A DNA stretch of 64,000 bases from a virus (IMGVR_UViG_3300033153_001906:55175-119174), one strand, 5' to 3'; positions 1,662 to 32,682 are shown, numbered from the stretch's first letter. The notes: generated by a model not told the origin, from the sequence alone. A program made the numbers and translations.

Positions 1662-2138
1662 TTACCACCCTTCGTCGCTGAATGTACGCCTATGCCCAAT
1701 TGTCGCGCTACCATCGTCGGAGAATGCGTCCCCGTCAGCGACACGAACATAAAATACTGTATTTGAATCCCACACCTTTCTGGTTTCTGTTTCGGGAAAC
1801 TTCAACTTTAGTTTGAATATATCTTTTTGACTACGTGTGCCAATAATCCATTTTGGACTGCTACGCTCCATGCATGTGCCATATGCAAATGTTGCGGACA
1901 TGCTTGCGCACAAGTACATACGCAATGCATTATCTGGTTCCATTGGGACTTCTACATTATTGATGATTCTTGGTTTATGACCAGGTATACACAACTTAAC
2001 GAATTCTATTTCTTCCACAGATTGTTTCTGTGGTTGCCGAAAATCCCAACTATGCATCGGCTTGTCAAGCAATAAGAAACTAAAGCCATCGCCCCCGCTT
2101 ATGTGTACATCAGAATGTAATGCAGTCCAGTCAGTCAT
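1662..2138 (-). CDS. hypothetical protein (FxxKL motif)
   Basis: 158 aa; IFKLKLKF. Confidence 0.7.
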   Translation of the reverse strand: MTDWTALHSDVHISGGDGFSFLLLDKPMHSWDFRQPQKQSVEEIEFVKLCIPGHKPRIINNVEVPMEPDNALRMYLCASMSATFAYGTCMERSSPKWIIGTRSQKDIFKLKLKFPETETRKVWDSNTVFYVRVADGDAFSDDGSATIGHRRTFSDEGW

Positions 2139-2752
2139 ACTTTTAGTTTCACTTTAAATAGATGCTTTTCAATATTCGCATCGGGTTCGTTTACTGTAAT
2201 CATCACTTCGACACCATTTGGATACTTCTTTCTGTAGAAGCTGGGTGCATTACCCAAGGTCACTGTCCTGCCGTCGTCATATGATTCGTAGTTTTTTAAT
2301 ACTTTCTGTAAATTCTTTACACCCTCACCCTTGATTTTCCAATTACCATATCCAAATTTTGTGTTAAACACAGAAGTAAGTGTACGAAATTGAGTAAAGC
2401 CAGTTAGAGTAAACTTACATGATGATGTTTCACCATCATATTTTGGCACAGTCGGTAGCTTCGGCACCAGGATTATGTCGATCTCATTTAACTTGTCGTA
2501 TATGTCGATTTTAGCTTTATCCAATATGTGTTTGTTGCCACGCACCACACCAATATATTGTTTATCTCCCGACCTACTCTTGGGAATATTTGTGTTAAAT
2601 TTACCATTTGATTCTATGTGTTTGGATGTTAAACTCATCGCGTCACTGGAATCCCAACGGCGAAGAACCCGCGTATCAACATTAATTTCTCTAACCAAGT
2701 CGCTAACTCGTTTATATTCGTTTTGGGTTCTGTAATGAAATGAAATCTTCAT
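2135..2752 (-). CDS. hypothetical protein (C-terminal FxxKL motif)
   Basis: start moved to ATGA overlap at 2752 (MKISF); ends LFKVKLKV. Confidence 0.7.
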   Translation of the reverse strand: MKISFHYRTQNEYKRVSDLVREINVDTRVLRRWDSSDAMSLTSKHIESNGKFNTNIPKSRSGDKQYIGVVRGNKHILDKAKIDIYDKLNEIDIILVPKLPTVPKYDGETSSCKFTLTGFTQFRTLTSVFNTKFGYGNWKIKGEGVKNLQKVLKNYESYDDGRTVTLGNAPSFYRKKYPNGVEVMITVNEPDANIEKHLFKVKLKV

Positions 2753-3126
2753 AGTAGCTTTCCGCAACACATGCATTCACGAGGATCATCGCGGTTTGGA
2801 TTTTTATCGCCATAATGGTACAAATAAACATGCTTTGAAACTGGTGATTCCTCACATGGCTTATCATTGTGTGAAATATAATCTTCTACTTCTAGTGTAG
2901 TCCAACAATGCATCTTGTCTGATAGTTTGGGTTTAAGTATTTTAATTAACAATTCGTTGGTTTGGTCTAGTCCTTCCCGATATTGTTTATAGTGTTCCCT
3001 GTATGTGTCATACATTTCTTGCGGGTCTTCACCATATTTTAGCCGCGCCTTGAACGCCACAAGTTGGGCCTTGCTTGCTTTTGGCTCTTTATCAGTCCAG
3101 CGTTTAAATAAACCCATTTGTATCAT
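2749..3126 (-). CDS. hypothetical protein (FxxRL motif, C-terminal Cys cluster)
   Basis: AFKARLKYG; ends CMCCGK. Confidence 0.7.
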   Translation of the reverse strand: MIQMGLFKRWTDKEPKASKAQLVAFKARLKYGEDPQEMYDTYREHYKQYREGLDQTNELLIKILKPKLSDKMHCWTTLEVEDYISHNDKPCEESPVSKHVYLYHYGDKNPNRDDPRECMCCGKLL

Positions 3127-3676
3127 TGTCCTTTATCTTGTCTACGAATACTTGTTTCTTGCGCCTTTTGAATGCGATTGTTCTGATGGTGAAGAATGGT
3201 AGTCCCAAAAATAATACAGCAGGCCATAGTATAGACCCAACTGCTCCAATAAACCAAACTGCGGCCAGTACAATTAGCACAGGCCACCATGCCAAGAAAG
3301 TCAAATCTGTATCTTGTTTTCCAGCCTCTTTTACCTGCCCGATCTTCAAAGCTACATCAAGTCTGTTTTTAAATAGTTTTGTGTCTTTCTCAACTGTCCA
3401 GAATGCAAACTGTCCGTGTGTGACGTATAGATGATAGTTAAATTTTAGTGAAGCTTGAATTCCGCCCACAGTGAGAATCAATGCCACTATTCCACACGCA
3501 GCAAGACAGCCTATCGCTCCCCATGCCCAAATCTGAAACAAGATTCCTTCTGCTACTGGTTCAGGCACTGGCGGGCCAGAGTATTGTACACCATCAACTT
3601 CATACCCGAATGCCAATACTGGAATCCATAGCATGACTATGATTAAGAAAACCCATTGCGCATTGATGCGTTTCAT
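3104..3676 (-). CDS. membrane protein, paralog of 32284-32682
   Basis: signal-like N-terminus, TM segments, tail KKQVFVDKIK. Confidence 0.7.
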   Translation of the reverse strand: MKRINAQWVFLIIVMLWIPVLAFGYEVDGVQYSGPPVPEPVAEGILFQIWAWGAIGCLAACGIVALILTVGGIQASLKFNYHLYVTHGQFAFWTVEKDTKLFKNRLDVALKIGQVKEAGKQDTDLTFLAWWPVLIVLAAVWFIGAVGSILWPAVLFLGLPFFTIRTIAFKRRKKQVFVDKIKDNDTNGFI

Positions 3677-4093
3677 TTAGTATCCATATTTTAATTTGAG
3701 TTTGAATGCGCTTTTATCGTCCACGCGATAGACTGTTGGGCTATCTACGCTGGCTGCGATGCCAAATCCTTTCAATGCTACACAGACTTTTCCAGTGCTG
3801 CATTCGTGAGATTGGCTCCATGAAATTAATTCAGCATTGCCATCGTAAATCAGGAAGCAGAATTGTCCAAACGGCACTGGCAGTCCATCAATGACAAGCA
3901 AATCATCGCGCACACTATAGAATCCTTCATCGTCCAGTTGTGAACGATCTACAATAAATGTGTTGGATTTGTGGTCTGCGTATAACAGAGGACATTGTTC
4001 ATCAATATGAATTGACAAGGTGCGATCATCGTCCATAACGTCGATTGTCGTATAAGCAGACGTATTAAGACATAAATTAGGAAAAGAGGCCAT
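3677..4093 (-). CDS. hypothetical protein (C-terminal FxxKL motif)
   Basis: ends SAFKLKLKYGY; follows promoter at 4120-4148. Confidence 0.7.
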   Translation of the reverse strand: MASFPNLCLNTSAYTTIDVMDDDRTLSIHIDEQCPLLYADHKSNTFIVDRSQLDDEGFYSVRDDLLVIDGLPVPFGQFCFLIYDGNAELISWSQSHECSTGKVCVALKGFGIAASVDSPTVYRVDDKSAFKLKLKYGY

Positions 4094-4119
4094 GATTACT
4101 CTAGTGTTAATGAGTTATC

Positions 4120-4148
4120 ATTATACTACATGGTCAGGCGCGTGTCAA
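4120..4148 (-). promoter_or_regulatory. sigma70-type promoter
   Basis: perfect TTGACA-N17-TATAAT; the -35 contains the TGA stop of the upstream gene. Confidence 0.85.
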
Positions 4149-5569
4149 GTCCTTACTTGCTTGTCCTCGACACGTAAACCATTGATTTCTAGATATGGCG
4201 CAACATATTTGAAGAAATAAAACTCAGGGATGTAATAATATCCTTCAGAACAGGAAATCATCAGTTCGCGCACACCACTTAATCCCTGTCTTAGTCGTTG
4301 GTCTACCACCATAGATTCCGCTATTTCGCGGAATGCATCTACGCCAGAAATGGTGTCGTCCTTGTACCTGAACTTTTCACCATCAACATAGCCGCCCTCA
4401 TCTGCTTTTTTGAAATGTTCCTGATAAGCGTCTAATATTTTATATGCATTTTTTAGTGGTTCTTGTTCGCCAAGGAGTTGTGCAATCCCATCCCAATCAA
4501 TGGTGTTTCGTGCTGAAACTGAATCATACGTATTGTACCAATCATCAATGAGTTCATGCCAAGTGTAATTGAAGTCGCCCATTGGAAAGAGAACATATAC
4601 TTCGCCATATATACTTGCAGTACGTGCGCTACCTGATACAAAAATAGAATTATTTCTATTAGCAGTTCCACCTTTTGAGTTAATGGCAAGATTGAACACT
4701 GTGGTTATTGCTTTACTAGAATCTTTAGGTGATCGGTTGTCGCGGTAGGCTCGGTGAAATGGATAGTTTTCAGCCCGTTCATATCCACGATATGCCAGCT
4801 TTAATGGTTGACCAGATTCGCCAATAAAATCTTTCGCATCACGCAGAATCTTCATTGCAACACGCTTATAGTATTCAGCATCGTCGCCACCATGTAAACC
4901 GTCAACAACTTCTTTCCAACTATCTACATCGCCTGGTAAACTATCTTGAGTATTGACTTCTTCTTCTACGGGCCATGATGTAGGCCGAGCATTGGGCGCA
5001 TTCAAAAATTTGGTGACTACTTTTTGCGCATCTACAAAGTCATTTCCATCTTCACTGTTATCAACGATGAGCATGTTATGAAAGATTGACTGTAATGATC
5101 CAAGTTTGCCTTTTAGTTCCGCATGAACGTTACGTACCCAATTACTATCTGCTTTGCGCCGACGTTCTTCGTTACGATCAAGTGCTTTGTTCAGTTCTGT
5201 GTTTACGAACACGGCCATTGTATCATAGCCCATTTTCTCTAGATCATTTTTGATTTCGGTTAGTCGTTCAATCTTACGTCCAGTGCCATCAATAATCAAT
5301 CCTATCCTGCCGCCCAGCAGTAAATCTAGTTTCTTCTGTGTGAGATTACCACTGTACTTGTACAGGTCATCATCGAAACCTTGTCCTTGGATACCTTGTC
5401 TGTCGCGTAGTAACTCATAGAATTCGTCCACATTCACTGTGCGCAAACCAGTGCCACCCGCAAGTTTTTTGGCTACATGGGTTTTGCCACTACCTGGCCC
5501 GCCAAGCATAAAGATAGCTTTGTGAGTGTGCGGATCGTTGCGGCCTTCGACTAGTTCGTACAGTTTCAT
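4145..5569 (-). CDS. P-loop kinase (zeta toxin/AAA_33-like) fused to a possible ADP-ribosyltransferase-like domain
   Basis: GGPGSGKT, VNVDEF, LIIDGTG; second half has AYRG...SIFVSGS...RELMI. Confidence 0.75.
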   Translation of the reverse strand: MKLYELVEGRNDPHTHKAIFMLGGPGSGKTHVAKKLAGGTGLRTVNVDEFYELLRDRQGIQGQGFDDDLYKYSGNLTQKKLDLLLGGRIGLIIDGTGRKIERLTEIKNDLEKMGYDTMAVFVNTELNKALDRNEERRRKADSNWVRNVHAELKGKLGSLQSIFHNMLIVDNSEDGNDFVDAQKVVTKFLNAPNARPTSWPVEEEVNTQDSLPGDVDSWKEVVDGLHGGDDAEYYKRVAMKILRDAKDFIGESGQPLKLAYRGYERAENYPFHRAYRDNRSPKDSSKAITTVFNLAINSKGGTANRNNSIFVSGSARTASIYGEVYVLFPMGDFNYTWHELIDDWYNTYDSVSARNTIDWDGIAQLLGEQEPLKNAYKILDAYQEHFKKADEGGYVDGEKFRYKDDTISGVDAFREIAESMVVDQRLRQGLSGVRELMISCSEGYYYIPEFYFFKYVAPYLEINGLRVEDKQVRT

Positions 5570-6356: not shown

Positions 6357-6610
6357 CGTACTTTACTCCAAGCATCTTTGCTAAATGTACCAGTTTGACG
6401 AGGATCAAAGTCTTCCTCATCATTTTCAAGTGCGAGGGTGCGCAGCGTGTGCGTACCAATTTCAAGTTCACGTACTGCGAACTGTGCTACCCGCAGTTCT
6501 TTTTCAAGAGTGCGAATGCGCTCGTCTTTGATGTTAATGTCAACTTTTGCATCAATCAACTTGCGCTGCAATACGTCAATCTGATTGTTTAGTATTTCAG
6601 TTTTAGTCAT
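6353..6610 (-). CDS. coiled-coil hypothetical protein
   Basis: heptad pattern, ATGA overlap. Confidence 0.65.
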   Translation of the reverse strand: MTKTEILNNQIDVLQRKLIDAKVDINIKDERIRTLEKELRVAQFAVRELEIGTHTLRTLALENDEEDFDPRQTGTFSKDAWSKVR

Positions 6611-6894
6611 AATATTACCTCTTTGGCTAAAGTCCCATTTAGCCGCCTCTTAAATAACTCGTTATCAGTTATGTCTTCGCCCCACACATCGTAGTGTCTC
6701 AATGGGCAAGTCTTTCCCTGCTTCCAAAATGCTAGTGGTAGTTGCTCTAGCGCATCATCTGAGTAGCCATTATGCTCTCCCCAAATCATGTACAATTCTT
6801 TCGCTTTACCCTTCTCCACTTCGCACGTTAAATTAAAAATCACTTCTTGAATGTCTGGTCGCATACCCCTTGCTCTGCCAATAAAATATTTCAT
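6607..6894 (-). CDS. tandem paralog family member
   Basis: MKYF start; GEDITDNELFKRRLNG. Confidence 0.7.
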   Translation of the reverse strand: MKYFIGRARGMRPDIQEVIFNLTCEVEKGKAKELYMIWGEHNGYSDDALEQLPLAFWKQGKTCPLRHYDVWGEDITDNELFKRRLNGTLAKEVIL

Positions 6895-7178
6895 AGATTA
6901 TTCCAAGATCGTATCATCTGTCTTGGATCACCACTAAGATCAACGTATCCATCTTCTGCTTTTCCTTGCAGAATCAGCTTGAACCAAACAGACTCAGTAA
7001 TTTCTTTGCCATGCATTACAAAACTTGGCTCGCCTGGCATGGACACAGTGTTTCCAGTGTCGAACAGTTCTTGTCCGCGATCATTACCACACCACATTTG
7101 ATAGAAGTCTAACGCATAATTTTCCTTAATGCGCTTTGGCTTGCTCTGTCTGTGTTCCATAAAGTAAATCATTTCCAA
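6891..7178 (-). CDS. tandem paralog family member
   Basis: MIYF; GKEITESVWFKLILQG. Confidence 0.7.
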   Translation of the reverse strand: MEMIYFMEHRQSKPKRIKENYALDFYQMWCGNDRGQELFDTGNTVSMPGEPSFVMHGKEITESVWFKLILQGKAEDGYVDLSGDPRQMIRSWNNL

Positions 7179-7450
7179 ACCTTTTGCTCAATGTTTCCTT
7201 CCAATCTCTGTTTAAACAATTCGCTATCGTTCCACTCTCTGCCTTCAATGAGAAGTCCCATGTGATGAACGTTGGTAAATTGACCACGTTCAAATAATCT
7301 TATCACACGCTCCTCAGATTCTTCATTCTCTTTACCACTCAATTCGTACAAATATTTTGCTCTCTCATACGAAACTTCAAACCATTTGTTTTTCCCAAAT
7401 CGAAATCCATCAATTCGTACTGCTCTAACTTGTCTCGCAAAATATCTCAT
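7169..7450 (-). CDS. tandem paralog family member
   Basis: start moved to MRYF at 7450; GREWNDSELFKQRLEG. Confidence 0.7.
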   Translation of the reverse strand: MRYFARQVRAVRIDGFRFGKNKWFEVSYERAKYLYELSGKENEESEERVIRLFERGQFTNVHHMGLLIEGREWNDSELFKQRLEGNIEQKVWK

Positions 7451-7575
7451 ACTACGATTGGGGCCTTTCCTTGAAATACACGGATCCAATTCCAGATTCT
7501 AAGATCGCTGCCAGAATTCAAAATCTCATCGGGGCAACCATTTTCTTTTGCGTATGTTTTAAAGTAAACTATCAT
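7447..7575 (-). CDS. small hypothetical protein (42 aa, not in ORF track)
   Basis: MIVYFKTYAKENG...WNWIRVFQGKAPIVV; ATGA overlaps at both ends. Confidence 0.6.
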   Translation of the reverse strand: MIVYFKTYAKENGCPDEILNSGSDLRIWNWIRVFQGKAPIVV

Positions 7576-7844
7576 TCGCTAGGGTTCCATATCCAAAGTC
7601 TGTGTTTCTTACTAGCTTTAAATTCTGCTGTCCATCCTGCTGGAACTGGCCCTTCTCGGCCTGCTCTACGTGCTGCACTTGCAGACGGGAAAATTCCCAT
7701 TTCGCGCATCAGCGCACCCATTTCATCTGATTCAGCGAAAAAGACTTGCTCTACGTTTCCATCAAGATCGCCAAACAGCGTAGCAACATCTTCTTTGCTC
7801 CACGCTGAATTCTTGATAATTACGTTTTCAACTGTCATTTCCAA
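7572..7844 (-). CDS. S4-like RNA-binding domain protein
   Basis: LMREMGIFPSASAARRAGREG resembles the S4 / TyrRS C-terminal motif. Confidence 0.55.
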   Translation of the reverse strand: MEMTVENVIIKNSAWSKEDVATLFGDLDGNVEQVFFAESDEMGALMREMGIFPSASAARRAGREGPVPAGWTAEFKASKKHRLWIWNPSE

Positions 7845-8401
7845 AAGTATCCTCTAAAGCTTAATTTGAATTCATTCGTTCTTGATCCATGTGAACACTC
7901 GATAACTCGACACTCACGACCAAAAGAACCATACGTTAAATCAAATTCAAATCTCTTAATTTCTACTGTAACACCAGCACCAAAATAATCTGACGTTGGC
8001 TCGTTCTCGTCGTTGAATGGTCGGCCTCTCGTAATATCGCTAACGTGAGTCCAAACAAGCAACGGCCTAATTGTCTCTGTGGTGAATGGGTAAATACGTA
8101 TTGCTGCTACTGTTCCACTCTGCCATTCATCCATTTTCCATTCTGGTTCTGCTGATACGCGCCACTGTGTCTTTTGTACGCCATGTGACAAATCAAATTC
8201 TACGTGTTTCCATTCAACTGTCAAACCAACTTGTACTGTTTGTAACGCATCACCAGTTTGATCTGCGCCAACATACGCACCAAATTCTGCTGCATCTGCA
8301 GGCTTCATTATCAGGAAAAGGATTACAACAAATGCGCACCCCATCGCGTATCCTACTGCTAGTCCTGATCCAAAAATTCTTTGTTCGCGTTTAGTCGTCA
8401 T
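7835..8401 (-). CDS. putative outer-membrane beta-barrel protein
   Basis: signal peptide (ADA-A), amphipathic strands, aromatic C-terminus FRGYFWK. Confidence 0.6.
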   Translation of the reverse strand: MTTKREQRIFGSGLAVGYAMGCAFVVILFLIMKPADAAEFGAYVGADQTGDALQTVQVGLTVEWKHVEFDLSHGVQKTQWRVSAEPEWKMDEWQSGTVAAIRIYPFTTETIRPLLVWTHVSDITRGRPFNDENEPTSDYFGAGVTVEIKRFEFDLTYGSFGRECRVIECSHGSRTNEFKLSFRGYFWK

Positions 8402-8978: not shown

Positions 8979-9953
8979 TTAGAACTCAAACTCGTCCTGG
9001 CATATGAGTACTTTGCGCACAGGATCCCACTCAGAATCATCATCGTATTTCTTTGCCATTTCGTCTGCTACTTCTGTTGTGATCTTAGCCAAAAACTGAT
9101 GGCCGTCAGTATCAACGTCTTGTGAAGTGTTTGGCTGTGGCGTGAATGCTTTGCGCGACTCCATCATAAACCTATAGAGTATCGCGTACTTTGAAAACTC
9201 AGCAAGGAAGTCAGTCAACTGTTCATCTTGGTTTGCTTCTGCCATTGATTTGATCTTTTCACCAATAGACTTGTGAAACGGCTGTTGCTGTGACTCTTTA
9301 CTGTGAGCATAAATCCAGCGTACCACTGTGTTCGTATCTTTCATATCTGAATCGGGAACAGGATGAAACATGAGGGTGTGACTGACTCCGCCCATTACTT
9401 TTGCTTCTTCTTCTGCCTTCTTGTAATATGCTTTGAAAGTTTTGATTGCTTCTGGAATGCAGTCTAAGAAGTATTGGTAGTTGATTTTCTCATAGATGAA
9501 TGATTCATGTTCATCTTTTGCATAAAACGTTTCTTGCCATGAGAAATCTTCCATGATGCGATCAAGAATGTCTTTGCGGATGAACCCAAGTCTAGCGTGA
9601 TTGTCAGAATTTTCCATGCCCATGAGACTTGCTCTGAATGTTTTGACATCATGGAATTTTAGTTCTTCCCGCGCGATCTTTTCAACGAATTGATCAGGTT
9701 TCAGATCATCACCAATTGGGGTTTTGTATTTGCGAAATTCGTCTGCGGTAAAGTGAAGTCCTAGTCCGTGGCATTCTTCGCTAGTACCATACTCATTGTA
9801 CTCACCGTAGAACATGATAGGAGAAACATAAAACAAAGAATTTGGCTTGTACCATTCACCATCTTCATTTCTTGTTACAACTGTCATGGCGACTTCATCG
9901 CCGCCCGTAACTGGCAGATTCGATACAATGCACGTTTCATTCCAGCAACCCAT
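8979..9953 (-). CDS. hypothetical phage protein
   Basis: 324 aa, starts MGCWNETC, has its own promoter. Confidence 0.8.
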   Translation of the reverse strand: MGCWNETCIVSNLPVTGGDEVAMTVVTRNEDGEWYKPNSLFYVSPIMFYGEYNEYGTSEECHGLGLHFTADEFRKYKTPIGDDLKPDQFVEKIAREELKFHDVKTFRASLMGMENSDNHARLGFIRKDILDRIMEDFSWQETFYAKDEHESFIYEKINYQYFLDCIPEAIKTFKAYYKKAEEEAKVMGGVSHTLMFHPVPDSDMKDTNTVVRWIYAHSKESQQQPFHKSIGEKIKSMAEANQDEQLTDFLAEFSKYAILYRFMMESRKAFTPQPNTSQDVDTDGHQFLAKITTEVADEMAKKYDDDSEWDPVRKVLICQDEFEF

Positions 9954-10023: not shown

Positions 10024-10317
10024 TTAATAAACATGCAGTTGCAGATTCCCCTCAATAAAAGCTTGTAGTTGCTTTGGAAAGTTCTCGTCAAGCTCGCTTC
10101 CTGTCTTTAATTTATGCACAAAATATTCTTTCTGGTCAAAGTCAACTATTATCTTGACCAGTGGTTGGCCGTTGATTTCAAAGTATCCACCATCTGAGGA
10201 AGGCACTTTCAATATCGTAGGTTCTAGCTCAAATGTAACGTCTTTTAGAATTTCAGGAAGTCTAAGATTCAGTTCATCCACGCATGTTGGTTTCCACTGT
10301 ACCAAATACTCTTTCAT
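10024..10317 (-). CDS. hypothetical protein (FxxKL motif)
   Basis: EYFVHKLKTG. Confidence 0.7.
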   Translation of the reverse strand: MKEYLVQWKPTCVDELNLRLPEILKDVTFELEPTILKVPSSDGGYFEINGQPLVKIIVDFDQKEYFVHKLKTGSELDENFPKQLQAFIEGNLQLHVY

Positions 10318-10947: not shown

Positions 10948-11411
10948 ATTTTCTTCTTGAGCAAGCGAGCTATGAAGTCTAGTTCCTTGCCTCTACTGTC
11001 TATGTATTGTTCTGCTGCTTTTTTGAATTTTACTACGTGACTGCCTGTTATTTGTGTGGCTATTGTCTCCGTACTATCTTCTCTGTATTTAGCGGCAGAC
11101 TTTATATTTACTTTGATTATCACGCCATTACCATCGCTACGCATCACGATACACATATTCTTTTTATCATTTATGAGTGATGCATCTTTCATTTCTGACA
11201 TATTGTATGCAACTGGTGTCCACTCGTATGTGTTGTCGCGTATGTCAACCAGAATTTTATCTAATAGTTTTATTTCTTGTTGTCTGTGTTTCTTGGCATG
11301 TGCGGACAGTTTTGGTCCGACTTTTAAACGATAATATACGTAACCAAGAAGGGCCACTGATACAAATATACTAAGTATTTGCATCCATTCTATATCAACC
11401 CATTCGAACAT
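10944..11411 (-). CDS. membrane-anchored hypothetical protein
   Basis: N-terminal TM segment, basic tail. Confidence 0.7.
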   Translation of the reverse strand: MFEWVDIEWMQILSIFVSVALLGYVYYRLKVGPKLSAHAKKHRQQEIKLLDKILVDIRDNTYEWTPVAYNMSEMKDASLINDKKNMCIVMRSDGNGVIIKVNIKSAAKYREDSTETIATQITGSHVVKFKKAAEQYIDSRGKELDFIARLLKKKI

Positions 11412-11844
11412 TTCGTGGTTTCTCTATCTTTTGATTTTGTAGTTGTAGAAAATAATCGTGCATTCTGTCAGTATCAACTATACCCCAATCTACATGGCTT
11501 CTTCCGCCCAAGTGAGTTGAGCCAGCAACTAATGCTGTTCCTTCAACCAGTGCATCATCAGTAACGTGGGATTTATCATCCAATATTGCTTTATCTTTTA
11601 CGACTGCAAACCCACTGGCACACGTAGAGCCTAACAGTGTTGCTTCACCTAGTACTTGTGCATATTCAAACACCTCTGCACTAGGACTAATGTAACATTT
11701 CTCAGCAACTACAGCAGATTCAGCAACCCATCCACCAATAGTACCATCGGGATTGATATGTGGCATTGCATATGTTTCTACTCCATTGTGAAACTTATGC
11801 TTCCCATATTTCAATCTGTTCAAAAATGTTCCCTTCGTACTCAT
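11395..11844 (-). CDS. left-handed beta-helix (hexapeptide repeat) protein
   Basis: HINPDG-x2-GGWVA followed by hexapeptide repeats. Confidence 0.75.
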   Translation of the reverse strand: MSTKGTFLNRLKYGKHKFHNGVETYAMPHINPDGTIGGWVAESAVVAEKCYISPSAEVFEYAQVLGEATLLGSTCASGFAVVKDKAILDDKSHVTDDALVEGTALVAGSTHLGGRSHVDWGIVDTDRMHDYFLQLQNQKIEKPRNVRMG

Positions 11845-12077
11845 ATGCCGCCTGTCGTAAGTTGAAATTTCAAAGACTCTTTAGGATCTTCAAAATCAAA
11901 TGCTACCCAGCCTATTCCGTTTATTCTATTATCGTCAGTGGTGTTGAGATAATAACTATTCCAGCCTTTCTTAATATGTGCATAGCACCAAGTACGAAGA
12001 TCGCACAGCTCCTCAAATGCTGTGCGATCTTGAACTATTACCGAATCATGTACTTGTATTAAGACTGTTGTAGTCAT
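11841..12077 (-). CDS. hypothetical protein
   Basis: WC...W...FDFEDPKESLKFQLTTGG. Confidence 0.7.
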   Translation of the reverse strand: MTTTVLIQVHDSVIVQDRTAFEELCDLRTWCYAHIKKGWNSYYLNTTDDNRINGIGWVAFDFEDPKESLKFQLTTGGI

Positions 12078-12683: not shown

Positions 12684-12698
12684 GTTGTTTCCTTTTTT

Positions 12699-12706
12699 GA
12701 TAAATA
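12699..12706 (+). promoter_or_regulatory. late-type promoter GATAAATA
   Basis: GATAAATA-N5-ATG(12712). Confidence 0.8.
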
Positions 12707-12711
12707 CTATT

Positions 12712-18476: not shown

Positions 18477-18490
18477 ATCAAACTCCACAT

Positions 18491-18510: not shown

Positions 18511-18523
18511 GCATTCTTATTTT

Positions 18524-22310: not shown

Positions 22311-22341
22311 AATAGACCCGCAAATTAATGTACAGACATAC

Positions 22342-22370
22342 ATAATAGCATGCCTGTACATCATTGTCAA
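22342..22370 (-). promoter_or_regulatory. sigma70-type promoter of clpS; -10 lies inside a 14-bp inverted repeat
   Basis: TTGACA-N17-TATTAT with TG extension. Confidence 0.65.
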
Positions 22371-22376
22371 GCGGTT

Positions 22377-22796
22377 TTACTTAATTTCTATCTGTTTTGG
22401 CTTTTTAGCTTCTGGAATTTCCTGTTTTAGCAGAATTGTGAGAATTCCATCGCTGAATTCAGCACTATCAATCTCCCAATACTCAGCTAAACTGAATTGC
22501 TTCGTGAAACTACGTGATGCAATACCCTGATGAACATAAATTTTATCTTCATCTACTGCTGGTTCTCCACTAACAGTCAATACATCATCTTCTACTGTAA
22601 TATCAACATCATCCCGCTGGAATCCAGCAAGCGCAAATTCGATACTACGAGTATCGTCGCCTGTAATGATAATGTTATGTGGTGGATAGTTGTTTGATTG
22701 TAAGCTTGATAGGTGATCTACGATGCGATCAAAGCCTATGAATTGGCGATTAAAAATATCTGCCGAAGTGATACGTGCTAGTTCTTTGGTGTTCAT
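22377..22796 (-). CDS. small heat shock protein Hsp20 (IbpA-like)
   Basis: IGFD, NYPPHNI, ALAGF, HQGIASRSF, DGILTI, IPEAKKP. Confidence 0.95.
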   Translation of the reverse strand: MNTKELARITSADIFNRQFIGFDRIVDHLSSLQSNNYPPHNIIITGDDTRSIEFALAGFQRDDVDITVEDDVLTVSGEPAVDEDKIYVHQGIASRSFTKQFSLAEYWEIDSAEFSDGILTILLKQEIPEAKKPKQIEIK

Positions 22797-24905: not shown

Positions 24906-25208
24906 TTAGTAAAGTCTTTTCCGTTTTGTAATGTCACCTTCACGACGCTTTTCTTCTCTCTTTACTGCGATTGCTCTTTTTCGTTTCCGAATTATCGAAG
25001 GCTTCTCGTAGTACTCGCGTTCGCGCAGGTCTCTCAATAGGCGGGAGTCTTGCACTTTTTTATTAAAAATGCGGAGGGCTTTTGTAAATGAACGATCATC
25101 GTCACCTTGAATCGTTACTTTTAATCCAGGACATACTGTACGTACATCAAATTCTGGCTTCTTACTGTAGTTATTATGCTTGTTTCTTGGCTTATTATTT
25201 CTGTTCAT
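24906..25208 (-). CDS. rpsU: ribosomal protein bS21 (N-terminally extended)
   Basis: FTKALRIFNKKV...REREYYEKPSIIRKRKR. Confidence 0.92.
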   Translation of the reverse strand: MNRNNKPRNKHNNYSKKPEFDVRTVCPGLKVTIQGDDDRSFTKALRIFNKKVQDSRLLRDLREREYYEKPSIIRKRKRAIAVKREEKRREGDITKRKRLY

Positions 25209-26388
25209 TAATTTTACTCTTAGTGTATACTACGTGTGGTTTTCCTACTTTGTTAATGATTATTTGTGTTGCTCCCTTCGATCTAAGGTGTGGCAACTCA
25301 AACTGCGTACGGAGCAAGGCTTTTTCCATTAGGTTTTGTAATCCTCTTGCTCCTGTTTTTTGCTTAGACGCTTGTTCTGCTATAGTCTCCAAAAATTCTT
25401 CTTCAAATAATAGTTCAACACCGTCAAGCGAAAATAAACTCTTATATTGATCCACCAAACAATCTTTTGGTTCTGTCAATATTCGTACTAATGATTCTGT
25501 TGTTAGTTCTGATAATGGAACTACACTTGGGAACCGTCCTACAAATTCAGGAATCATTCCATATTCAATTAGATCCTCTGATGTAGTAGTCAATAATAAC
25601 TCAAGTGCGGGTGGTTTGTCAACCTTTGATATAAATCCGATGCCTGTTGCATTTCGATCACTCCTCAATATAATCTTGTCAAGGCCCACAAATGCGCCCG
25701 CCGCGATGAACAGAATGTTGGTCGTATCGAACTCACTACCGTTGGAAAGCTTGACTTGTGACCCCTCAACCAGTTTTAATAATGCTTGCTGTACGCCCTC
25801 ACCAGACACATCTCTGTTGGTTGATGGTGATGAAATTTCCCTGCTTTTTTTATCTATCTCATCAATGTAAATAATGCCTTGTTGCGCAAGTTCAATGTCG
25901 CCATCCGCTTTTTCTAGCAAACGATCAACCATGCTGTCTACATCTTCGCCTACGTAGCCTGCCGATGTTAATGTGGTTGCATCTGCATGTACAAATGGTA
26001 ATTTCAAAAGATTTGCAATCGTACTGACCAATAATGTTTTGCCAGTTCCACTTGGGCCTATGAGCAATACATTAGATTTTTTGAGTGTTGTTTCTCCGAC
26101 TACTGGATTATTGATACGCTTATTGTGATTATAAAGTGCTACTGCTAGTGCCTCTTTTGCACTACCCTGTTCTATCACATACGTATCTAAGTAGTGTTTG
26201 ATTTCATGCGGGGTTGGTGTATCTGAACTTGGCTGGCGCAATGTCTTTGTGCTGACTGCGCGATAGCCAACTTCTATACATTCTTCACAAATATAGACTG
26301 TTTCTTCGCCCTTGTCTGGGCCTGCAATTATTTTCTTAACATCATTTCTAGTATTGGGACAAAAACTACATTTGATTGTATCAGTCAT
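25195..26388 (-). CDS. clpX: ATP-dependent Clp protease ATP-binding subunit ClpX
   Basis: CSFC/CEEC zinc finger, KSNVLLIGPSGTGKT, GYVGEDV, IDEIDK, DVSGEGVQQALLK, IGF loop. Confidence 0.97.
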   Translation of the reverse strand: MTDTIKCSFCPNTRNDVKKIIAGPDKGEETVYICEECIEVGYRAVSTKTLRQPSSDTPTPHEIKHYLDTYVIEQGSAKEALAVALYNHNKRINNPVVGETTLKKSNVLLIGPSGTGKTLLVSTIANLLKLPFVHADATTLTSAGYVGEDVDSMVDRLLEKADGDIELAQQGIIYIDEIDKKSREISSPSTNRDVSGEGVQQALLKLVEGSQVKLSNGSEFDTTNILFIAAGAFVGLDKIILRSDRNATGIGFISKVDKPPALELLLTTTSEDLIEYGMIPEFVGRFPSVVPLSELTTESLVRILTEPKDCLVDQYKSLFSLDGVELLFEEEFLETIAEQASKQKTGARGLQNLMEKALLRTQFELPHLRSKGATQIIINKVGKPHVVYTKSKINEQK

Positions 26389-27441: not shown

Positions 27442-27789
27442 TTAGTCATCATTCAGCAGCGAGCCGTCCAACTTGCCCTTAAATACTTGCTTTTTAGTGA
27501 TTGTTGTAAACTTCAAATCGTGTGGGCCGACAATGATTGTCGTGCCTGGAATTGCTTCTACAAAGCGTTCTTTAATTCTATCGAGATATTGAAGAAACTT
27601 GTTTGGTGGCATTCCCATGTTGTTTTCTACATAGATATACAACGCATCATTATCACCCACTTCAACGTGTGTGCTACAAACACTTTGCGCGCTTTTGTAG
27701 TCGGGGTGGTTAACATCTGGCTCTGGTACAATCCCCGAAAAAATATCCTGAGCGAAATGGTTAACTCCACTTGGCGGACCCACGCTCAT
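27442..27789 (-). CDS. hypothetical protein (C-terminal FxxKL motif)
   Basis: KKQVFKGKLDG. Confidence 0.7.
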   Translation of the reverse strand: MSVGPPSGVNHFAQDIFSGIVPEPDVNHPDYKSAQSVCSTHVEVGDNDALYIYVENNMGMPPNKFLQYLDRIKERFVEAIPGTTIIVGPHDLKFTTITKKQVFKGKLDGSLLNDD

Positions 27790-28349
27790 ATTTCTGGCTC
27801 ACTGTATCTGCTGCAACTCTTTGGTGTTTCCCACCATTCAACTTCACCAACTTTCACGCCAAGCTTTGCCATTTTTACTGCTGCGAGTTCGTATGCCCAC
27901 TTCGATAGATTCTCAGAAGTAGGAATAAAATCAACTATGAAAAAGCTTTCCAAGTATTCATACTCAGGGTGGTCGGATGTAAACCCACGCAATTCTTCGT
28001 CCATATCAATAACGTGGCCTGCGATGTGGTCTGTATCTGGTACAAACACTGGCTTCAATTGCTTGCGTACACCAATCATTCTCTGATACAGCGGATCACT
28101 ATGATCTATGATGAATCTGTGATCTACAGTTTCGTCAAAGAATTTCTTGAGCCAACTTAGATGCAAGAAATCTGTTACCATTCCTTGCTCGTCTAGTTCG
28201 TCACCTTGCAAATGAATATGCACTTCTGCTTCGTGTCCATGCAAATGTCTGCAAACACACTTACGATCAAGTGCAAATTCACTCTCTAGCTTCTGTACCC
28301 AAACGCGATGACCGTATGCAAAGTTGAATTGCTTACTAATCTTCCACAT
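27786..28349 (-). CDS. queD: 6-carboxy-5,6,7,8-tetrahydropterin synthase
   Basis: YGHR, CRHLHGH, VTDF, DHRF, PTSENL, ETPKS. Confidence 0.92.
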   Translation of the reverse strand: MWKISKQFNFAYGHRVWVQKLESEFALDRKCVCRHLHGHEAEVHIHLQGDELDEQGMVTDFLHLSWLKKFFDETVDHRFIIDHSDPLYQRMIGVRKQLKPVFVPDTDHIAGHVIDMDEELRGFTSDHPEYEYLESFFIVDFIPTSENLSKWAYELAAVKMAKLGVKVGEVEWWETPKSCSRYSEPEI

Positions 28350-28516
28350 TAGAATTTGCCGTTATTCATTACATCAAAAAGAATATACAAATTTTCTTCT
28401 GCTTTTTGTTTACTAGAAAACCCCTGTGAAGATGCACCAACAATTTTTCCATTTGCTGCCTGTACGCGCCAGCGATGCTTTCCACCCTTGTCTATATAAT
28501 ATTCAATCTTGTCCAT
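28349..28516 (-). CDS. DUF1508/YegP-like small protein (55 aa, not in ORF track)
   Basis: [42 protein letters not shown]. Confidence 0.8.
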
Positions 28517-28829
28517 TTTCCTCTCCTGCTATATATGCTGTGCTGCCTGTACCCCAATGACGAGGCCGATTTACTTCTGGTCCTCGTGTCTTGGCTGGTT
28601 GACCAAATGCATCTTTCGATGGGATTACAACTTCACTGAAATCAGTGTATCCTGCTGCAATCTCACGCAATGCAATTACTGTTGGTTTATCTTTATCTGG
28701 TGATACAAGTGGTTGTGCGCCATGCTGCAACTGATGGGCGCGATTTGCAGCAATTAGAATCATATGAAAGATTCCTCCGCCCGCTGCTACCACTGTGGTT
28801 AGTGAATCTTCAACTGTTACTCTTGCCAT
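28503..28829 (-). CDS. rpoZ: RNA polymerase omega subunit
   Basis: MARVTVED...F[13 protein letters not shown]...[14 protein letters not shown]. Confidence 0.92.
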
Positions 28830-28980
28830 CTTTATTTTCCTCTATAAATTCTGTTAACATATCATTAATTAATTGGTTCAATGTAATATCTTTCTCATGT
28901 GCTTTCTGCATTAGATAAAAGAGATCATCTTCTTCAAAATCAATTTCCACATCTACCATCTTTTCTTTCTTTTCACTCAT
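28810..28980 (-). CDS. small ribbon-helix-helix-like protein (56 aa, not in ORF track)
   Basis: [34 protein letters not shown]. Confidence 0.65.
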
Positions 28981-29657
28981 TTGTAATCCCTCGCAAGTGC
29001 CATAAATTCTGCGCGTGTCGCTGGATCACCTTTGAATCCACCGCCTAGTTTGCTGGTTATTGTGCTTGAACCAGTATCTTCAATTCCTCTGCTCTTGACA
29101 CAGAAATGATCTGCGTCAATTACTACTGCAACCTGTTCTGTTTTAAGTATGTAACAGAGTGCATGATAAATCTGTGCTGTTAATCTTTCTTGTACTTGTG
29201 GTCTACGCGCAAAATATTCTGCTACGCGATTAAGCTTCGATAGACCAATAACTTTCCCATTTGGGATATAGCCAATTGTCGCTTTGCCCACGATGCCAAC
29301 AAAATGATGCTCACATACAGACATGATATTGATGTTCTTTTCGACCAGCATTTCATCGTAATTGAATTCATTCTCTACGACTGTGATCTTGGGGAAGTTT
29401 TCTATTCGTAATCCATAGAATGTTTCATCCACATACATCTTTGCTACTCGCTTCGGCGTATCTTGTAAGCTATCGTTTTCAAGGTCAAGACCAAGAACAG
29501 TCATGGTTGATTGCACATTCTTTCCAATCAACTCAACCATTAGGTCTTCGTTCATTGCTTCCCTTGCTGCAAATGGCGTTTCCACGCCCAACTCAAGTAA
29601 GTGTTCGTGAATCTCTTGCCCAAGTACTGCGTCTGTTTTATTTTTATTAAGCGCCAT
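28977..29657 (-). CDS. folE: GTP cyclohydrolase I
   Basis: DTPKRVAKMY, CEHH, IGLSKLNR, RRPQVQERLT, HFCVKSRG. Confidence 0.97.
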   Translation of the reverse strand: MALNKNKTDAVLGQEIHEHLLELGVETPFAAREAMNEDLMVELIGKNVQSTMTVLGLDLENDSLQDTPKRVAKMYVDETFYGLRIENFPKITVVENEFNYDEMLVEKNINIMSVCEHHFVGIVGKATIGYIPNGKVIGLSKLNRVAEYFARRPQVQERLTAQIYHALCYILKTEQVAVVIDADHFCVKSRGIEDTGSSTITSKLGGGFKGDPATRAEFMALARDYK

Positions 29658-30036
29658 TTTCGTTTTGATTCCAACTGTAGTATTGTGATCGGGTTTGGAT
29701 GCCTTGAAGACTTTGCATCGCTTCCATTTTCTCTGATGCAGTATGCGCCATTGCAGCTTTGCTCATTATGCGTGACATTTCTGTTATATCACTTATTGCA
29801 CGTTGCATATCCATTTGGCTGCGAGTAAACTCGCGCTCCATTGTAGCCATTTTCTCAATCAACTGTTTCAACGGCCCAGGCTTGCCATTATACGTGCCCT
29901 CCAACTTTTTGATGAATTTAAGCTTTGAAAATTCATCTTTAAGATCGCCCTCGTCTGATATATTCTGTAAGATAGCATCAAACAGATCAATAAGTTCAGG
30001 ATCAAAATCAAACCCTTGTTTTTCGTATTGGTTCAT
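29647..30036 (-). CDS. coiled-coil protein, paralog of 30036-30482
   Basis: KLKFIKKLEG then coiled coil. Confidence 0.7.
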   Translation of the reverse strand: MNQYEKQGFDFDPELIDLFDAILQNISDEGDLKDEFSKLKFIKKLEGTYNGKPGPLKQLIEKMATMEREFTRSQMDMQRAISDITEMSRIMSKAAMAHTASEKMEAMQSLQGIQTRSQYYSWNQNENGA

Positions 30037-30482
30037 TAGTATTTGCTCTTGAAATTCGTAATGAAGTTATCAACTGCGCTCTGGTCAATATTAATGGCAT
30101 AGTTCTGTCCCAATGGATCAGGATTCGCTATTGCTATAAATGCGTTTGCTACGCCACGCATATCAGTGTTGTAGTTGTTTACTTTTGTTTCCAATTCTGT
30201 GATTCTAACCTCTGCGTCGATTGATTTACTTCGTTCAGTAGAAAGGTCTATCTGTAGATCGTGAATACATTTCTGCTGGTCTTCAACAAAAGCCAATAAA
30301 CTTTCAACAAACTTCTTAGAATCTTCACCCTTTAATTTCTGGTGGAAATCAATCTTTTTGGATAAGTCTTTGAATAAGCCATTTTCGACGCCTTGAATTA
30401 CAAAGTCGATCTTCTCTATTGTTGCTTCGCTTGGCTTCTCAATATAGTATTGAACTGGTGCGCCGCCTGTTCCTGAATTCAT
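30036..30482 (-). CDS. coiled-coil protein, paralog of 29647-30036
   Basis: start at ATGA overlap (MNSGTG); KIDFHQKLKG then coiled coil. Confidence 0.7.
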   Translation of the reverse strand: MNSGTGGAPVQYYIEKPSEATIEKIDFVIQGVENGLFKDLSKKIDFHQKLKGEDSKKFVESLLAFVEDQQKCIHDLQIDLSTERSKSIDAEVRITELETKVNNYNTDMRGVANAFIAIANPDPLGQNYAINIDQSAVDNFITNFKSKY

Positions 30483-30640
30483 TGTTTTTCTGCCTCTGTC
30501 TCTGCCCATTCTTTTATGTGCTGCATAGTTTCAAGTAGCCCTTGTCTATAACATTCGCTACACTGTTCATGCCACGCACGGCACATATCTTCCATTTCTG
30601 GTTTTGTGAATTCATCCCCACATTCAGTACAATTCTTCAT
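30479..30640 (-). CDS. small zinc-finger protein (53 aa, not in ORF track)
   Basis: MKNCTECGDEF...QCSECY; SD AGGA. Confidence 0.7.
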   Translation of the reverse strand: MKNCTECGDEFTKPEMEDMCRAWHEQCSECYRQGLLETMQHIKEWAETEAEKQ

Positions 30641-30648
30641 TATTATCC

Positions 30649-31524
30649 TTATACAGCCATTTTTGGCTTGTTCTTAATGTCTGGTTCTGCGACATAATTT
30701 GTCAGTGATACATCATTATACTCTAATTCTAATAGATCGTCAAGTTTATTTAGGTCTTTTAGAATTTCTAATTGAGGAAGTGGATGTGGTGTACGCTCTA
30801 GTTGCTCATTCACCATATCAAATTGATTCTTGTATATGTGAACGTCGTTACCAGTGTACGAAAGAATTCCTGGTTTATATCCCAAAAGTTTTGCAAGAGC
30901 CATATTTAGGAATGCGTAATTCATAATATTGTATGGTAGACCAAATGGAACATCATTACTGCGCATCATAAAATTAGAGTTTAACCTTCCATCTGGCGTG
31001 ACCTGATATTGTTGTAATATATGACAGGGCGGTAACGCGCATTTTTCTATTTGTTGTGGATTCCATGCGCTTATGATATGTCTTCGGCTGAACGGATCGT
31101 TTTTGATTTGTTCTATCATCTGCACTAACTGGTCGATTCCTGTGTAGTGCCAGTCTTCGGGACTGTCTGCTGTGTCCCAGCCGCCAAAGTTTCGCCATTG
31201 GTGGCCGTACCCATAGCCCATATCGCCCTCTTCTAGCCAATCTAAACCTCTTGCGTCCAGAAATTCTCTTGTTGTATTTCCTGTCCATATGTGTATATTC
31301 TTTTCTTCTAGTTCTTTCGTTTGTCTGCCACCACGTAGCATAAACATGGTTTCTTCGAATGAAATACGAAACGCTACTTTGCGCGTAGTAATGATTGGGA
31401 ATCCCTCTTCTAAATTCCAATGTAACATTCTGCCCCAAACTGAGCGTGAACCAATGCCAGTTCGATCATCTTTGTCGAACCCATTGTCCATTATATCTTG
31501 TAGTAAATCTAAGTAATTTTTCAT
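30649..31524 (-). CDS. thyA: thymidylate synthase
   Basis: DRTGIG, FPIITTRK, YGHQWR, ALPPCH, RSND-x3-GLPYN, HIYKN. Confidence 0.96.
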   Translation of the reverse strand: MKNYLDLLQDIMDNGFDKDDRTGIGSRSVWGRMLHWNLEEGFPIITTRKVAFRISFEETMFMLRGGRQTKELEEKNIHIWTGNTTREFLDARGLDWLEEGDMGYGYGHQWRNFGGWDTADSPEDWHYTGIDQLVQMIEQIKNDPFSRRHIISAWNPQQIEKCALPPCHILQQYQVTPDGRLNSNFMMRSNDVPFGLPYNIMNYAFLNMALAKLLGYKPGILSYTGNDVHIYKNQFDMVNEQLERTPHPLPQLEILKDLNKLDDLLELEYNDVSLTNYVAEPDIKNKPKMAV

Positions 31525-31525
31525 T

Positions 31526-31723
31526 TTAGTCGTCTAGTGCCCCTTCGCCCATCTTACCCATTACCTTCATCATTCGCCGCCTGGGTTTAGGTGTGGTTTT
31601 GCCCCGTTTAAGCCGATACTGAAAAACCTCTTTTCGCAAGCTATTATTTTCTTCTTCTAATTCAATAACTCTAGTTTTCAGTTTTCGAATCTTATTGGCT
31701 TTTCGTTTTCTCAAAAATTTCAT
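31526..31723 (-). CDS. small basic protein (FxxRL motif)
   Basis: EVFQYRLKRG. Confidence 0.65.
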   Translation of the reverse strand: MKFLRKRKANKIRKLKTRVIELEEENNSLRKEVFQYRLKRGKTTPKPRRRMMKVMGKMGEGALDD

Positions 31724-31878
31724 TAGTGCGGCCCAGGATCATTGGTTCTATTATTGTCACCATGCTTTAAACGATTAGTAAATTTCCGTTTCTTGGCGTC
31801 CCGCGTCAGTTTCTTTTGGATAGTTTTCCAATCAACCCAGCTTGGAACTTTTTTCCATTTAACTATTTTGGAAGCCAT
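31723..31878 (-). CDS. small basic protein (51 aa, not in ORF track; FxxRL motif)
   Basis: MASKIVKWKKVPSW...KRKFTNRLKHGD; TAATG overlap. Confidence 0.65.
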   Translation of the reverse strand: MASKIVKWKKVPSWVDWKTIQKKLTRDAKKRKFTNRLKHGDNNRTNDPGPH

Positions 31879-32216
31879 TCTAAACACCCATTTTCATCTA
31901 TGATACGAATATCTTTTTCTTGCTCTTGTGCAATGTCCCACTGTAAAGATAGATATTCTTCCAATTCGTGATTTGTGAGTGATATGGGGCCGTTAGCAGA
32001 ATTCCCCCACATTTGCCACTTATCGCCGAGTTTCATTATTTGGTGCATTTCTTCTGTTGCTGTATTGCAAATGGTGAATGTCACGCCACTCGCAACTCTC
32101 AATACTTTAACGCGAAGTTTTCCTTTTAACCTGTCAACAAATTTCTGCTTTGCATCTGGATCAGGAACCATAGATGGTTTGATAATTTCTGTAGTTGGTT
32201 GAGAAAATCGTGTCAT
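31863..32216 (-). CDS. hypothetical protein (FxxRL motif), predicted leaderless
   Basis: start MTRFSQ 6 nt after -10; KQKFVDRLKG. Confidence 0.7.
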   Translation of the reverse strand: MTRFSQPTTEIIKPSMVPDPDAKQKFVDRLKGKLRVKVLRVASGVTFTICNTATEEMHQIMKLGDKWQMWGNSANGPISLTNHELEEYLSLQWDIAQEQEKDIRIIDENGCLEWLPK

Positions 32217-32222
32217 ATAACG

Positions 32223-32251
32223 AGTATACAACAAAAAAAGCAGTACGTCAA
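32223..32251 (-). promoter_or_regulatory. sigma70-type promoter
   Basis: TTGACG-N17-TATACT. Confidence 0.75.
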
Positions 32252-32262
32252 GTACTGCTTTT
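32233..32262 (-). terminator. intrinsic terminator overlapping the -35 element
   Basis: GCAGTAC/GTACTGC stem plus T7. Confidence 0.8.
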
Positions 32263-32283
32263 CCTAAATTTAAATTGTGGGAG

Positions 32284-32682
32284 TTATTCTCCGCTTTTTA
32301 GCTTATCGACAAACTCTAGTTTCTTTAAATGTCGATTTCGAAGATATTGCGCATATTTTGTAATACTATAGACGAGTAATGCGCCAGTTGCTACTATTGG
32401 AACCAATCCCCATGCTATAAATAGTGCAACACCCACTCCTGCAAGAGTAACTGCGTCCATAAGAATCGCCCCTGGGTGTGTCTCATTAAAGAGATTGTAT
32501 ATTCTTCCCTTGGAGTCTTTACTCCAACCAAACATTAAATCATTATCGTCGTTGCCCATATTTCCGTTTTTCACGTAATATGGTATTGTGCGAAATAAAC
32601 GAAATAACAAAACTGGAACAAAAAACGCAATCATGGCATATGCGATATACCATGATATGGTGAAATATAGTGCGCCGTCCAT
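32284..32682 (-). CDS. membrane protein, paralog of 3104-3676
   Basis: TM segments; ends KKLEFVDKLKSGE. Confidence 0.7.
   Translation of the reverse strand: MDGALYFTISWYIAYAMIAFFVPVLLFRLFRTIPYYVKNGNMGNDDNDLMFGWSKDSKGRIYNLFNETHPGAILMDAVTLAGVGVALFIAWGLVPIVATGALLVYSITKYAQYLRNRHLKKLEFVDKLKSGE

Follow-up and report, generated by a model that had tools for sequence, protein, structure and literature searches.

The stretch of DNA analysed here, referred to as the window, was 64,000 nucleotides long and comprised bases 55,175-119,174 of a 119,174-bp virus contig (IMGVR_UViG_3300033153_001906) with a CheckV completeness of 44%. The minus strand held nearly all contig genes. Genes were called as the longest non-overlapping open reading frames (ORFs), giving 192 proteins with 37,856 amino acids (aa). 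Fifty of these proteins had homologues in the Pseudomonas jumbo phage PA5oct, in collinear order and with the DnaJ gene adjoining clpA, and weaker links were found to marine T4-like phages. Judged from its proteins, the source phage is an uncultured distant relative of PA5oct. Many small proteins of the window carried one short peptide, F-x-x-[KR]-L-x-(x)-G, which is called the tag in the following and its bearers carriers. An earlier note on the sequence had listed 18 such peptides as a tag of otherwise unrelated small proteins, and all 18 strings were located in minus-strand ORFs at the ORF coordinates it gave. In ORF 11841-12077 the string was present as well, but the protein ended in TTGGI and not in TTGG. 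Thirteen of the 18 sites were strict matches and three more (ORFs 1662, 2135 and 3104) passed the position matrix described below, whereas those of ORFs 6891 and 11841 failed.

The window had 13 strict matches to F..[KR]L.{1,2}G, all of them read from coding frames of the minus strand and located from 3031 to 32313. Two matches were present in plus-strand frames, one of them running across a stop codon. Contig-wide, 20 strict matches were present among the called proteins, or 22 including two window ORFs that were dropped by the gene caller. Shuffling within proteins (n=300) yielded 1.54 +/- 1.24 strict matches with a maximum of six, and the frequency was above that expected from K/L/F composition, in line with the earlier note. 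Nineteen of the 20 matches were located in the 137 proteins of up to 200 aa. The sole match in a large protein was FRNRLDG of ClpA, which was conserved in PA5oct and other ClpA genes. The strict pattern ranked first among 4,078 occurring patterns of the same shape (Poisson P 1e-14), followed by its own variant with Asp replacing Gly. An unbiased count of four-residue gapped patterns in small proteins placed +..F..+L at the top, with 20 occurrences versus 0.85 (log10P -20). Unrelated viral and metagenome loci contained seven matches in 178,083 aa and eight in 142,137 aa. Shuffles, same-shape patterns and unrelated loci together ruled out a composition artefact. The codons at the motif F, K/R, L and G varied synonymously and shared no common nucleotide sequence, which placed the signal in the protein and excluded a DNA-level motif. 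A position matrix with an acceptance threshold of 9 identified 30 sites, 29 of them with scores of at least 10 versus 0.7 in shuffles. Because the strict sites had served as its training set, only about ten extra sites represented new information.

Written out in full, the motif reads [ST]-K-x-E-x-F-[KV]-x-[KR]-L-K-(x)-G and corresponds to an alpha-helix, some 11 residues long, with caps at both ends. It showed the traits of a short linear motif, with Phe 0, Leu +4, K/R +3 and Lys -3 fixed and the other positions free. Phe (41/43) and Leu (42/43) were near-invariant. Lys -3, which lies outside the search pattern, was present at 16 of 22 sites and at 31 of 43 in a larger set. Position +1 was Lys, Val or Ile and position +5 was Lys. 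The ratio of Lys to Arg at -3, +1 and +5 was 52 to 1, compared with 1.4 to 1 in the background, and about equal at +3 with 14 to 12. A capping box, [STDN](-5)...[ED](-2), was found at 14 of 43 sites versus 1.4 expected. The distance of Gly from Leu took two values, and at least five of the 30 sites had no Gly. Both carriers folded with AlphaFold2 (n=2) had a predicted helix at the motif, consistent with the short helix suggested before. This helix comprised residues 126-136 in ORF 3677-4093 (block means 88 and 69) and residues 4-10 in the beta-helix-like ORF 11395-11844, the latter at low confidence and with a predicted local distance difference test value (pLDDT) below 50 for the N-terminal tag. 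A fold search of the PDB with the model of ORF 3677-4093 gave no match at E 0.001 or better.

With the motif masked, BLAST found 2 of 496 carrier pairs to be similar, ruling out paralogy as the source of the shared motif, and a Pfam scan of the 30 carriers gave no family at cut-off; the bodies were unrelated, as had been claimed. PHROG models and distant homologues of ORF 11395-11844 covered residues ~26-119 only and not the tagged N-terminus. The description of the motif as often terminal was also borne out, since 20 of the 30 sites were within 12 residues of a protein end, compared with 8.1 for random placement. Seventeen were C-terminal, followed by 0 to 12 residues, three were N-terminal and ten internal. 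The tag is portable, as it stands at either end of or within unrelated bodies and was gained and lost between orthologues. In the family of ORF 8979-9953, the related locus L045 had the strict motif and the window a degenerate form, whereas L051 had none. The sites discussed here are compiled in Table 1.

Table 1. Tag sites and weak variants in the window, with the ORFs that carry them. Strict denotes a match to F..[KR]L.{1,2}G; L045, L051 and G001 are related loci.
Peptide	Window position	Strand	ORF	Place in the protein	Match or matrix score	Remarks
KDIFKLKLK	1800..1826	-	1662-2138	internal, residue 108/158	17.4	without Gly cap; kept in L045 and G001 orthologues
KHLFKVKLKV	2138..2167	-	2135-2776	C-terminus	13.4	orthologues end LFKVVLKG
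LVAFKARLKYG	3031..3063	-	2749-3126	near N-terminus, residue 25/125	strict	kept in L045 and G001
KQVFVDKIKD	3128..3157	-	3104-3676	after last hydrophobic segment	10.7	membrane-like; orthologues have strict forms NFTQKLKG and EFKQKLNG at this position
KSAFKLKLKYG(Y, stop)	3683..3715	-	3677-4093	C-terminus	strict	
NELFKRRLNG	6634..6663	-	6607-6894	near C-terminus	strict	kept in G001 and L051; paralogue of ORF 7169-7489
SVWFKLILQG	6963..6992	-	6891-7178		0.8	weak variant, doubtful
SELFKQRLEG	7196..7225	-	7169-7489	near C-terminus	strict	
KEYFVHKLKTG	10099..10131	-	10024-10317	internal, residue 66/97	strict	L045 orthologue KKEYFIKALK-G
KGTFLNRLKYG	11803..11835	-	11395-11844	N-terminus, residues 4-14	strict	beta-helix-like
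KESLKFQLTTG	11850..11882	-	11841-12077	C-terminus	-1.8	possible divergent variant with Leu at anchor; register-compatible; K-E-x-[LM]-K-F-x-L-x-x-G kept in 10 relatives
KQVFKGKLDG	27463..27492	-	27442-27789	near C-terminus	strict, 19.0	
KLKFIKKLEG	29896..29925	-	29647-30036	internal, residue 41/129	strict	
KIDFHQKLKG	30327..30356	-	30036-30509	internal, residue 55/157		
KEVFQYRLKRG	31601..31633	-	31526-31723		strict	65 aa
KRKFTNRLKHG	31759..31791	-	31723-31887		strict	54 aa
KQKFVDRLKG	32121..32150	-	31863-32234	residue 32/123	strict	
KLEFVDKLKSG(E, stop)	32290..32322	-	32284-32682	C-terminus	strict	membrane-like

Conservation was assessed in 24 orthologue pairs from the syntenic loci L040-L051 and from G001, a 43-kb relative. 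The four key positions were kept in 75 of 96 cells, compared with 1,236 of 3,007 (41%) in other columns, which shows that the motif is conserved in orthologues. Phe was kept in all 24 pairs, as read by eye from the alignment rows. In orthologues of 25-40% identity, the motif was the best-kept part. K4, F7, R10, L11 and G14 were invariant in 12 sequences of the beta-helix family (ORF 11395-11844), down to 52% identity, and F130, L132, L134 and K135 in 16 sequences of the family of ORF 3677-4093. In the family of ORF 30036-30509, where 30 sequences reached down to 39% identity, F, H, Q, K, L and G never varied. As judged from these alignments, the motif is under selection at the protein level. 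The family of ORF 30036-30509 also contained two tandem similar elements, EKIDFVIQG and KKIDFHQKLKG, both in its most conserved stretch.

Two types of promoter-like sites were present. The motif GATAAATA occurred at 20 minus-strand and three plus-strand sites of the contig; 14 of the 20 were in the window (690-60912), often upstream of structural-looking genes. Sigma70-like sites of the form TTGAC[AT]-N15-19-TAnnnT showed a minus-strand excess as well, with 29 versus 5 sites. Judged by these consensus matches, GATAAATA probably represents late promoters and the sigma70-like sites early promoters. Each gene was assigned to the class of its nearest upstream promoter-like site, an assignment that reflects consensus matches only. 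Thirty carriers were among the 122 genes behind sigma70-like sites and none among the 52 behind GATAAATA (Fisher 1e-5). Small proteins behind the late motif were untagged (0/32), and about one fifth of the small early proteins were tagged. The earlier note had not noticed the peptide in enzymes or virion proteins, which agrees with its absence behind the late motif and with a best tag score of -1.0 in the phage DNA polymerase (contig 16277-19222, corresponding to window -38897..-35952).

The motif was restricted to one lineage. Its excess amounted to 21 versus 1.9 in the own contig and 8 versus 0.7 in G001, and close metagenome relatives held 13 matches in 19,995 aa. No motif excess was found in T4, HTVC008M, Melnitz-3, S-WAM1, the complete genome of PA5oct, G006, G007, G009 (92% complete), G010, G012, G013 and G014. 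The short contigs G002-G004, covering mainly the ClpA neighbourhood, showed small nominal excesses, but conserved ClpA motifs accounted for 1 of 3, 2 of 5 and 2 of 3 matches, and we regard these counts as uninformative. A megablast search of the phage collection for relatives found nothing. Searches among viral contigs with ORF 30036-30509, ORF 4145-5569 and an A4-family alignment, and in the phage collection with ORF 14614-15426 and ORF 7835-8401, revealed no relatives either.

A variant of the motif was detected in G005, a contig of 113 kb whose ClpA was 53% identical to that of the window genome. Forty-two window-genome proteins had matches in G005, with a mean identity of ~43% in the reciprocal search; by this measure G005 is about as distant as the relatives that lack the tag. 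An unbiased search of G005 placed M..+L.G at the top, with 9 versus 0.23. The pattern M..[KR]L.{1,2}G was found 10 times versus 1.0 expected (P 1e-7), and the Phe form was at chance level (2 vs 1.8). Lys -3 was present at five of the ten Met sites. The G005 carrier with ...AYEKYKMLEKLLGE was homologous (E 5e-13) to the window-genome carrier with ...TYKKYKFLEELIG and had Met where the latter has Phe. A near-exclusive anchor residue that differs between lineages points to a co-evolving binding pocket, since neither lipid binding nor a purely structural helix predicts such a switch.

These observations suggest that about 30 early carriers share a portable docking helix through which they are handled as a group by a single reader, a reading to which we assign a probability of roughly 55%. 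The tag would be a portable short linear motif, forming a self-contained helix of ~11 residues with N-cap and C-cap that was grafted, mostly C-terminally, on ~30 otherwise unrelated small early proteins. One face of the helix, with Lys -3, Phe 0, K/R +3 and Leu +4, would face one macromolecule, the reader, which most likely is a protein that belongs to the phage lineage or its host. This reader would handle the tagged early proteins as a group, with relocation, timed removal or modification as candidate outcomes. The earlier proposal of one common hub is supported indirectly, by the Met-for-Phe switch across the carriers of a distant relative. Literature searches, at the level of listings and abstract openings, returned no description of such a tag.

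Several points weigh against the docking reading. No reader was found, and the single common partner is therefore something that we infer. The tail of Escherichia coli MinD, ...EEEKKGFLKRLFGG, fits K-x-x-F-x-x-R-L-x-G exactly, including Lys -3. The C-terminal helix of ORF 3677-4093, modelled with fairly high confidence, may be packed against the rest of the protein and have a partly structural role. The Met form is known from one contig with ten sites, about one of which is expected by chance, and only half of them have Lys -3. The motif-positive genomes may represent one clade, which would leave few independent events of presence and absence. Gene calls and promoter classes came from simple rules, neither from a trained gene finder nor from RNA data.

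The fit of the MinD tail raises the question of whether the tag is a membrane-targeting sequence, a short basic helix on the cytoplasmic face of the inner membrane like the C-terminal anchors of MinD and FtsA (in E. coli, FtsA ends in ...GSWIKRLNSWLRKEF). MinD binds the membrane via a C-terminal amphipathic helix (PMC7857489). The tag is rich in Lys, 17 of 30 sites are C-terminal, and in two membrane-like carriers it was read by eye just past the last hydrophobic segment. However, carriers that are already in the membrane would have no need for such an anchor. The helix was also not amphipathic beyond background, at variance with the earlier note: its mean hydrophobic moment was 0.33 and its hydrophobicity 0.12, compared with 0.30 and 0.36 for background 10-mers, 0.47 and 0.24 for MinD and 0.67 and 0.43 for FtsA. 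The MinD tail scored 6.1 on the motif matrix, under the threshold. A lipid anchor should tolerate any large hydrophobic residue in place of the near-invariant Phe and Leu, and the genome-wide change from Phe to Met in one relative is unexpected under lipid binding. Membrane targeting is therefore regarded as unlikely.

A helix without any common partner was considered as well. Small, fast-evolving proteins would then owe stability or solubility to it, as a structural cassette passed on by descent or copied through recombination. Its own N-cap and C-cap, the fairly confident model at the end of one carrier and a longer C-terminal stretch, AY.KY.[FM], common to three carriers are consistent with this. 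Identical key residues on 30 unrelated bodies indicate, however, a constraint external to these bodies. Small late proteins were untagged, the anchor residue switched across a whole lineage, and the carriers shared no nucleotide sequence. This explanation appears the least probable of those considered.

The contig codes for a set of protein quality control factors confirmed by Pfam: ClpP, ClpX with a zinc-finger domain, a ClpA-like protein with a Clp_N domain, ClpS, FtsH, Hsp20 and DnaJ. Ribosomal protein S21 and an RNA polymerase omega-like protein were confirmed in the same way. These genes, with S21 and the omega-like protein listed alongside, were located at window 12078-12863, 18822-20612, 22011-22796, 24906-26388 and 28503-28829 and at contig 28260-31375. 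The quality control set and S21 had PA5oct homologues in the same order; the omega-like protein was without a listed PA5oct match. The tag could accordingly be imagined as a degron or a dock for an unfoldase N-domain, by which early proteins would be fed to phage ClpXP, ClpAP-ClpS or FtsH and cleared when the late phase starts. Its confinement to the early class and its position near protein ends would suit this, and ClpX follows a gene with an upstream late-type motif at 27415, with no sigma70-like site between. PA5oct, however, has homologues of ClpX, ClpA, ClpS, ClpP, FtsH, Hsp20 and DnaJ, and G009 has all but DnaJ, and neither showed an excess of the motif or of an analogue. These proteins are thus not sufficient for the tag, and the earlier suggestion of phage ClpXP or FtsH as the hub became less likely. 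The placement of a ClpX signal was not observed either, as 0 to 12 residues follow the C-terminal tags and ten of 30 sites are internal. The tag is unlike the ClpX class N-motif-2 as given in PMC7857489. Recognition of the MinD tail by ClpX was dismissed, as the same paper places the ClpX signal at the MinD N-terminus and not in the anchor (PMC7857489). A helix of the lambda CIII type that inhibits FtsH was rejected, with CIII (...ERITRKLRDGW...) scoring -0.6 on the motif matrix. Complex prediction of the 54-aa carrier ORF 31723-31887 with the ClpX zinc-finger domain (two copies), the ClpA N-domain and DnaJ gave a score of 0.00 in runs without controls, which weighs neither way. Overall, a degron is improbable.

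At window 292-1510, genes for a RadC-like JAB protein and a macro-domain protein closed an operon of five consecutive tagged genes. ORF 1157-1510 had a RadC-like JAB domain (E 5e-21), and ORF 292-801 a macro domain just below the Pfam cut-off with a weak DarG match. Either could be a candidate for an enzyme, a JAB peptidase in the first case, that modifies or cuts its substrates at the tag. Both genes stood next to the same carriers in G001 and the macro gene did so in L045, and in G005 the macro gene was ~1 kb from two carriers. Each of the four motif-positive sources (own contig, G001, L045 and G005) had a macro homologue, and none was found in PA5oct, G006 and G007-G016. RadC was present in the own contig and G001 and absent from PA5oct, Melnitz-3, HTVC008M and T4. 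The preference for Lys over Arg at three positions could mark a modified residue. However, RadC was not found in the motif-bearing G005, and its identity of only 30% between window and G001 is poor for a reader of an invariant motif. Gly at two distances from Leu, with its absence from several sites, is more in keeping with a helix cap than with a point of cleavage. That the macro gene occurs together with the motif may be due to shared descent only. Macro domains bind ADP-ribose and are not known to bind peptides, which counts against the enzyme. We therefore hold an enzyme recognition site to be improbable too, and the macro-domain protein as reader is a lead only. An ORF at window -21060..-20038, taken by eye for an ADP-ribosyltransferase, was dropped as it had no Pfam or PADLOC match.

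The docking helix may be specified further, though tentatively. The tag might be an address code with dialects, read by a dedicated, co-evolving reader with a Phe pocket in the window genome and a Met pocket in the G005 lineage, which would handle about a fifth of the small early proteins as a group, for instance by moving them or by removing them at a set time; we consider this version possible but doubtful. Five proteins were common to the window genome and G005 and had no PA5oct match, including one carrier, the macro-domain protein ORF 292-801 and an unannotated late protein of 340 aa. Conserved, lineage-specific hub candidates (ORFs 14614-15426, 15474-16031, 7835-8401 and others) had no Pfam family. 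In the window, ORFs 15474-16031 and 14614-15426 were separate genes, whereas the relatives L042 and G001 have one ORF of 480-495 aa in their place; this suggests that the gene was split or frameshifted, or that the sequence contains an error. Their product showed 75-76% identity between relatives and had no PA5oct homologue.

Other shared peptides were observed. The sequence MNEMRKLME... or MRKLME... formed the N-terminus of proteins at window 16035-16544, 50669-51049 and 63405-63986 and at contig 32987-33499, and MR/K-x-x-E-L starts were present on further proteins, e.g. at window 4145-5569, 52792-53178 and 62194-63405. Some of the MRKLME or MR-x-x-E-L genes were directly downstream of late-type GATAAATA sites, e.g. 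5582, 18510 and 54706. PA5oct (MK797984.1, 408-2693 and 266-286 kb) has a repeated peptide of its own, [IV]L.LQ, often as N-terminal MD[LF]IL.LQ, in small genes close to the ends of its genome, which probably form paralogue families.

No part of large phage genomes is understood less well than the small early proteins. If the docking reading is true, a shared handle means that many of them act via one common step, and it gives an experimental grip on some thirty ORFans together. The Phe and Met dialects would offer a natural specificity swap for testing candidate readers. Should such tags be general in giant phages, motif-based wiring would be a neglected layer of phage biology. An address code would amount to a phage-owned network of hub and motifs, of a kind known from eukaryotic cells and their viruses.

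The tag can be compared with several known systems. It resembles the anchors of MinD and FtsA in being a short basic helix that is often C-terminal, and the MinD tail fits its pattern. Positions +1 and +5, however, are hydrophobic in MinD and Lys in the phage tag. Unlike both anchors, the tag does not exceed background in amphipathicity. Its Phe and Leu are invariant, and it is also found in N-terminal and internal positions. The internal proteins of T4 carry a capsid-targeting sequence of ~10 residues, which is N-terminal, present on late virion proteins and cut off. The likeness consists in a shared peptide of ~10 residues on otherwise unrelated phage proteins, whereas the phage tag is mostly C-terminal and was absent from all 52 genes behind the late motif. 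The MIM1 helices of ESCRT-III, with the consensus (D/E)xxLxxRLxxL(K/R), dock on the MIT domain of the AAA+ ATPase Vps4. They too are short C-terminal helices with a hydrophobic-x-x-R-L core that occur on several proteins and are read by one domain, but the system is eukaryotic and archaeal and the analogy may extend to the mechanism only. Peptides that bind a hub are further known from the sliding-clamp tails of T4-type phages, bacterial clamp-binding motifs and PIP boxes. A T4-type clamp tail was rejected as identity of the tag, since the phage DNA polymerase ends in ...EAELMEELFDFS (...EELFDFS), which is acidic and unlike the tag; we take this end to resemble the acidic clamp-binding tails of T4-type polymerases. 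By analogy, the phage tag may correspond to the clamp-tail and PIP-box systems in its general design, with one short and often terminal peptide on many unrelated proteins and a single hub. The sequences differ, and the phage tag stands on about a fifth of the small early proteins.

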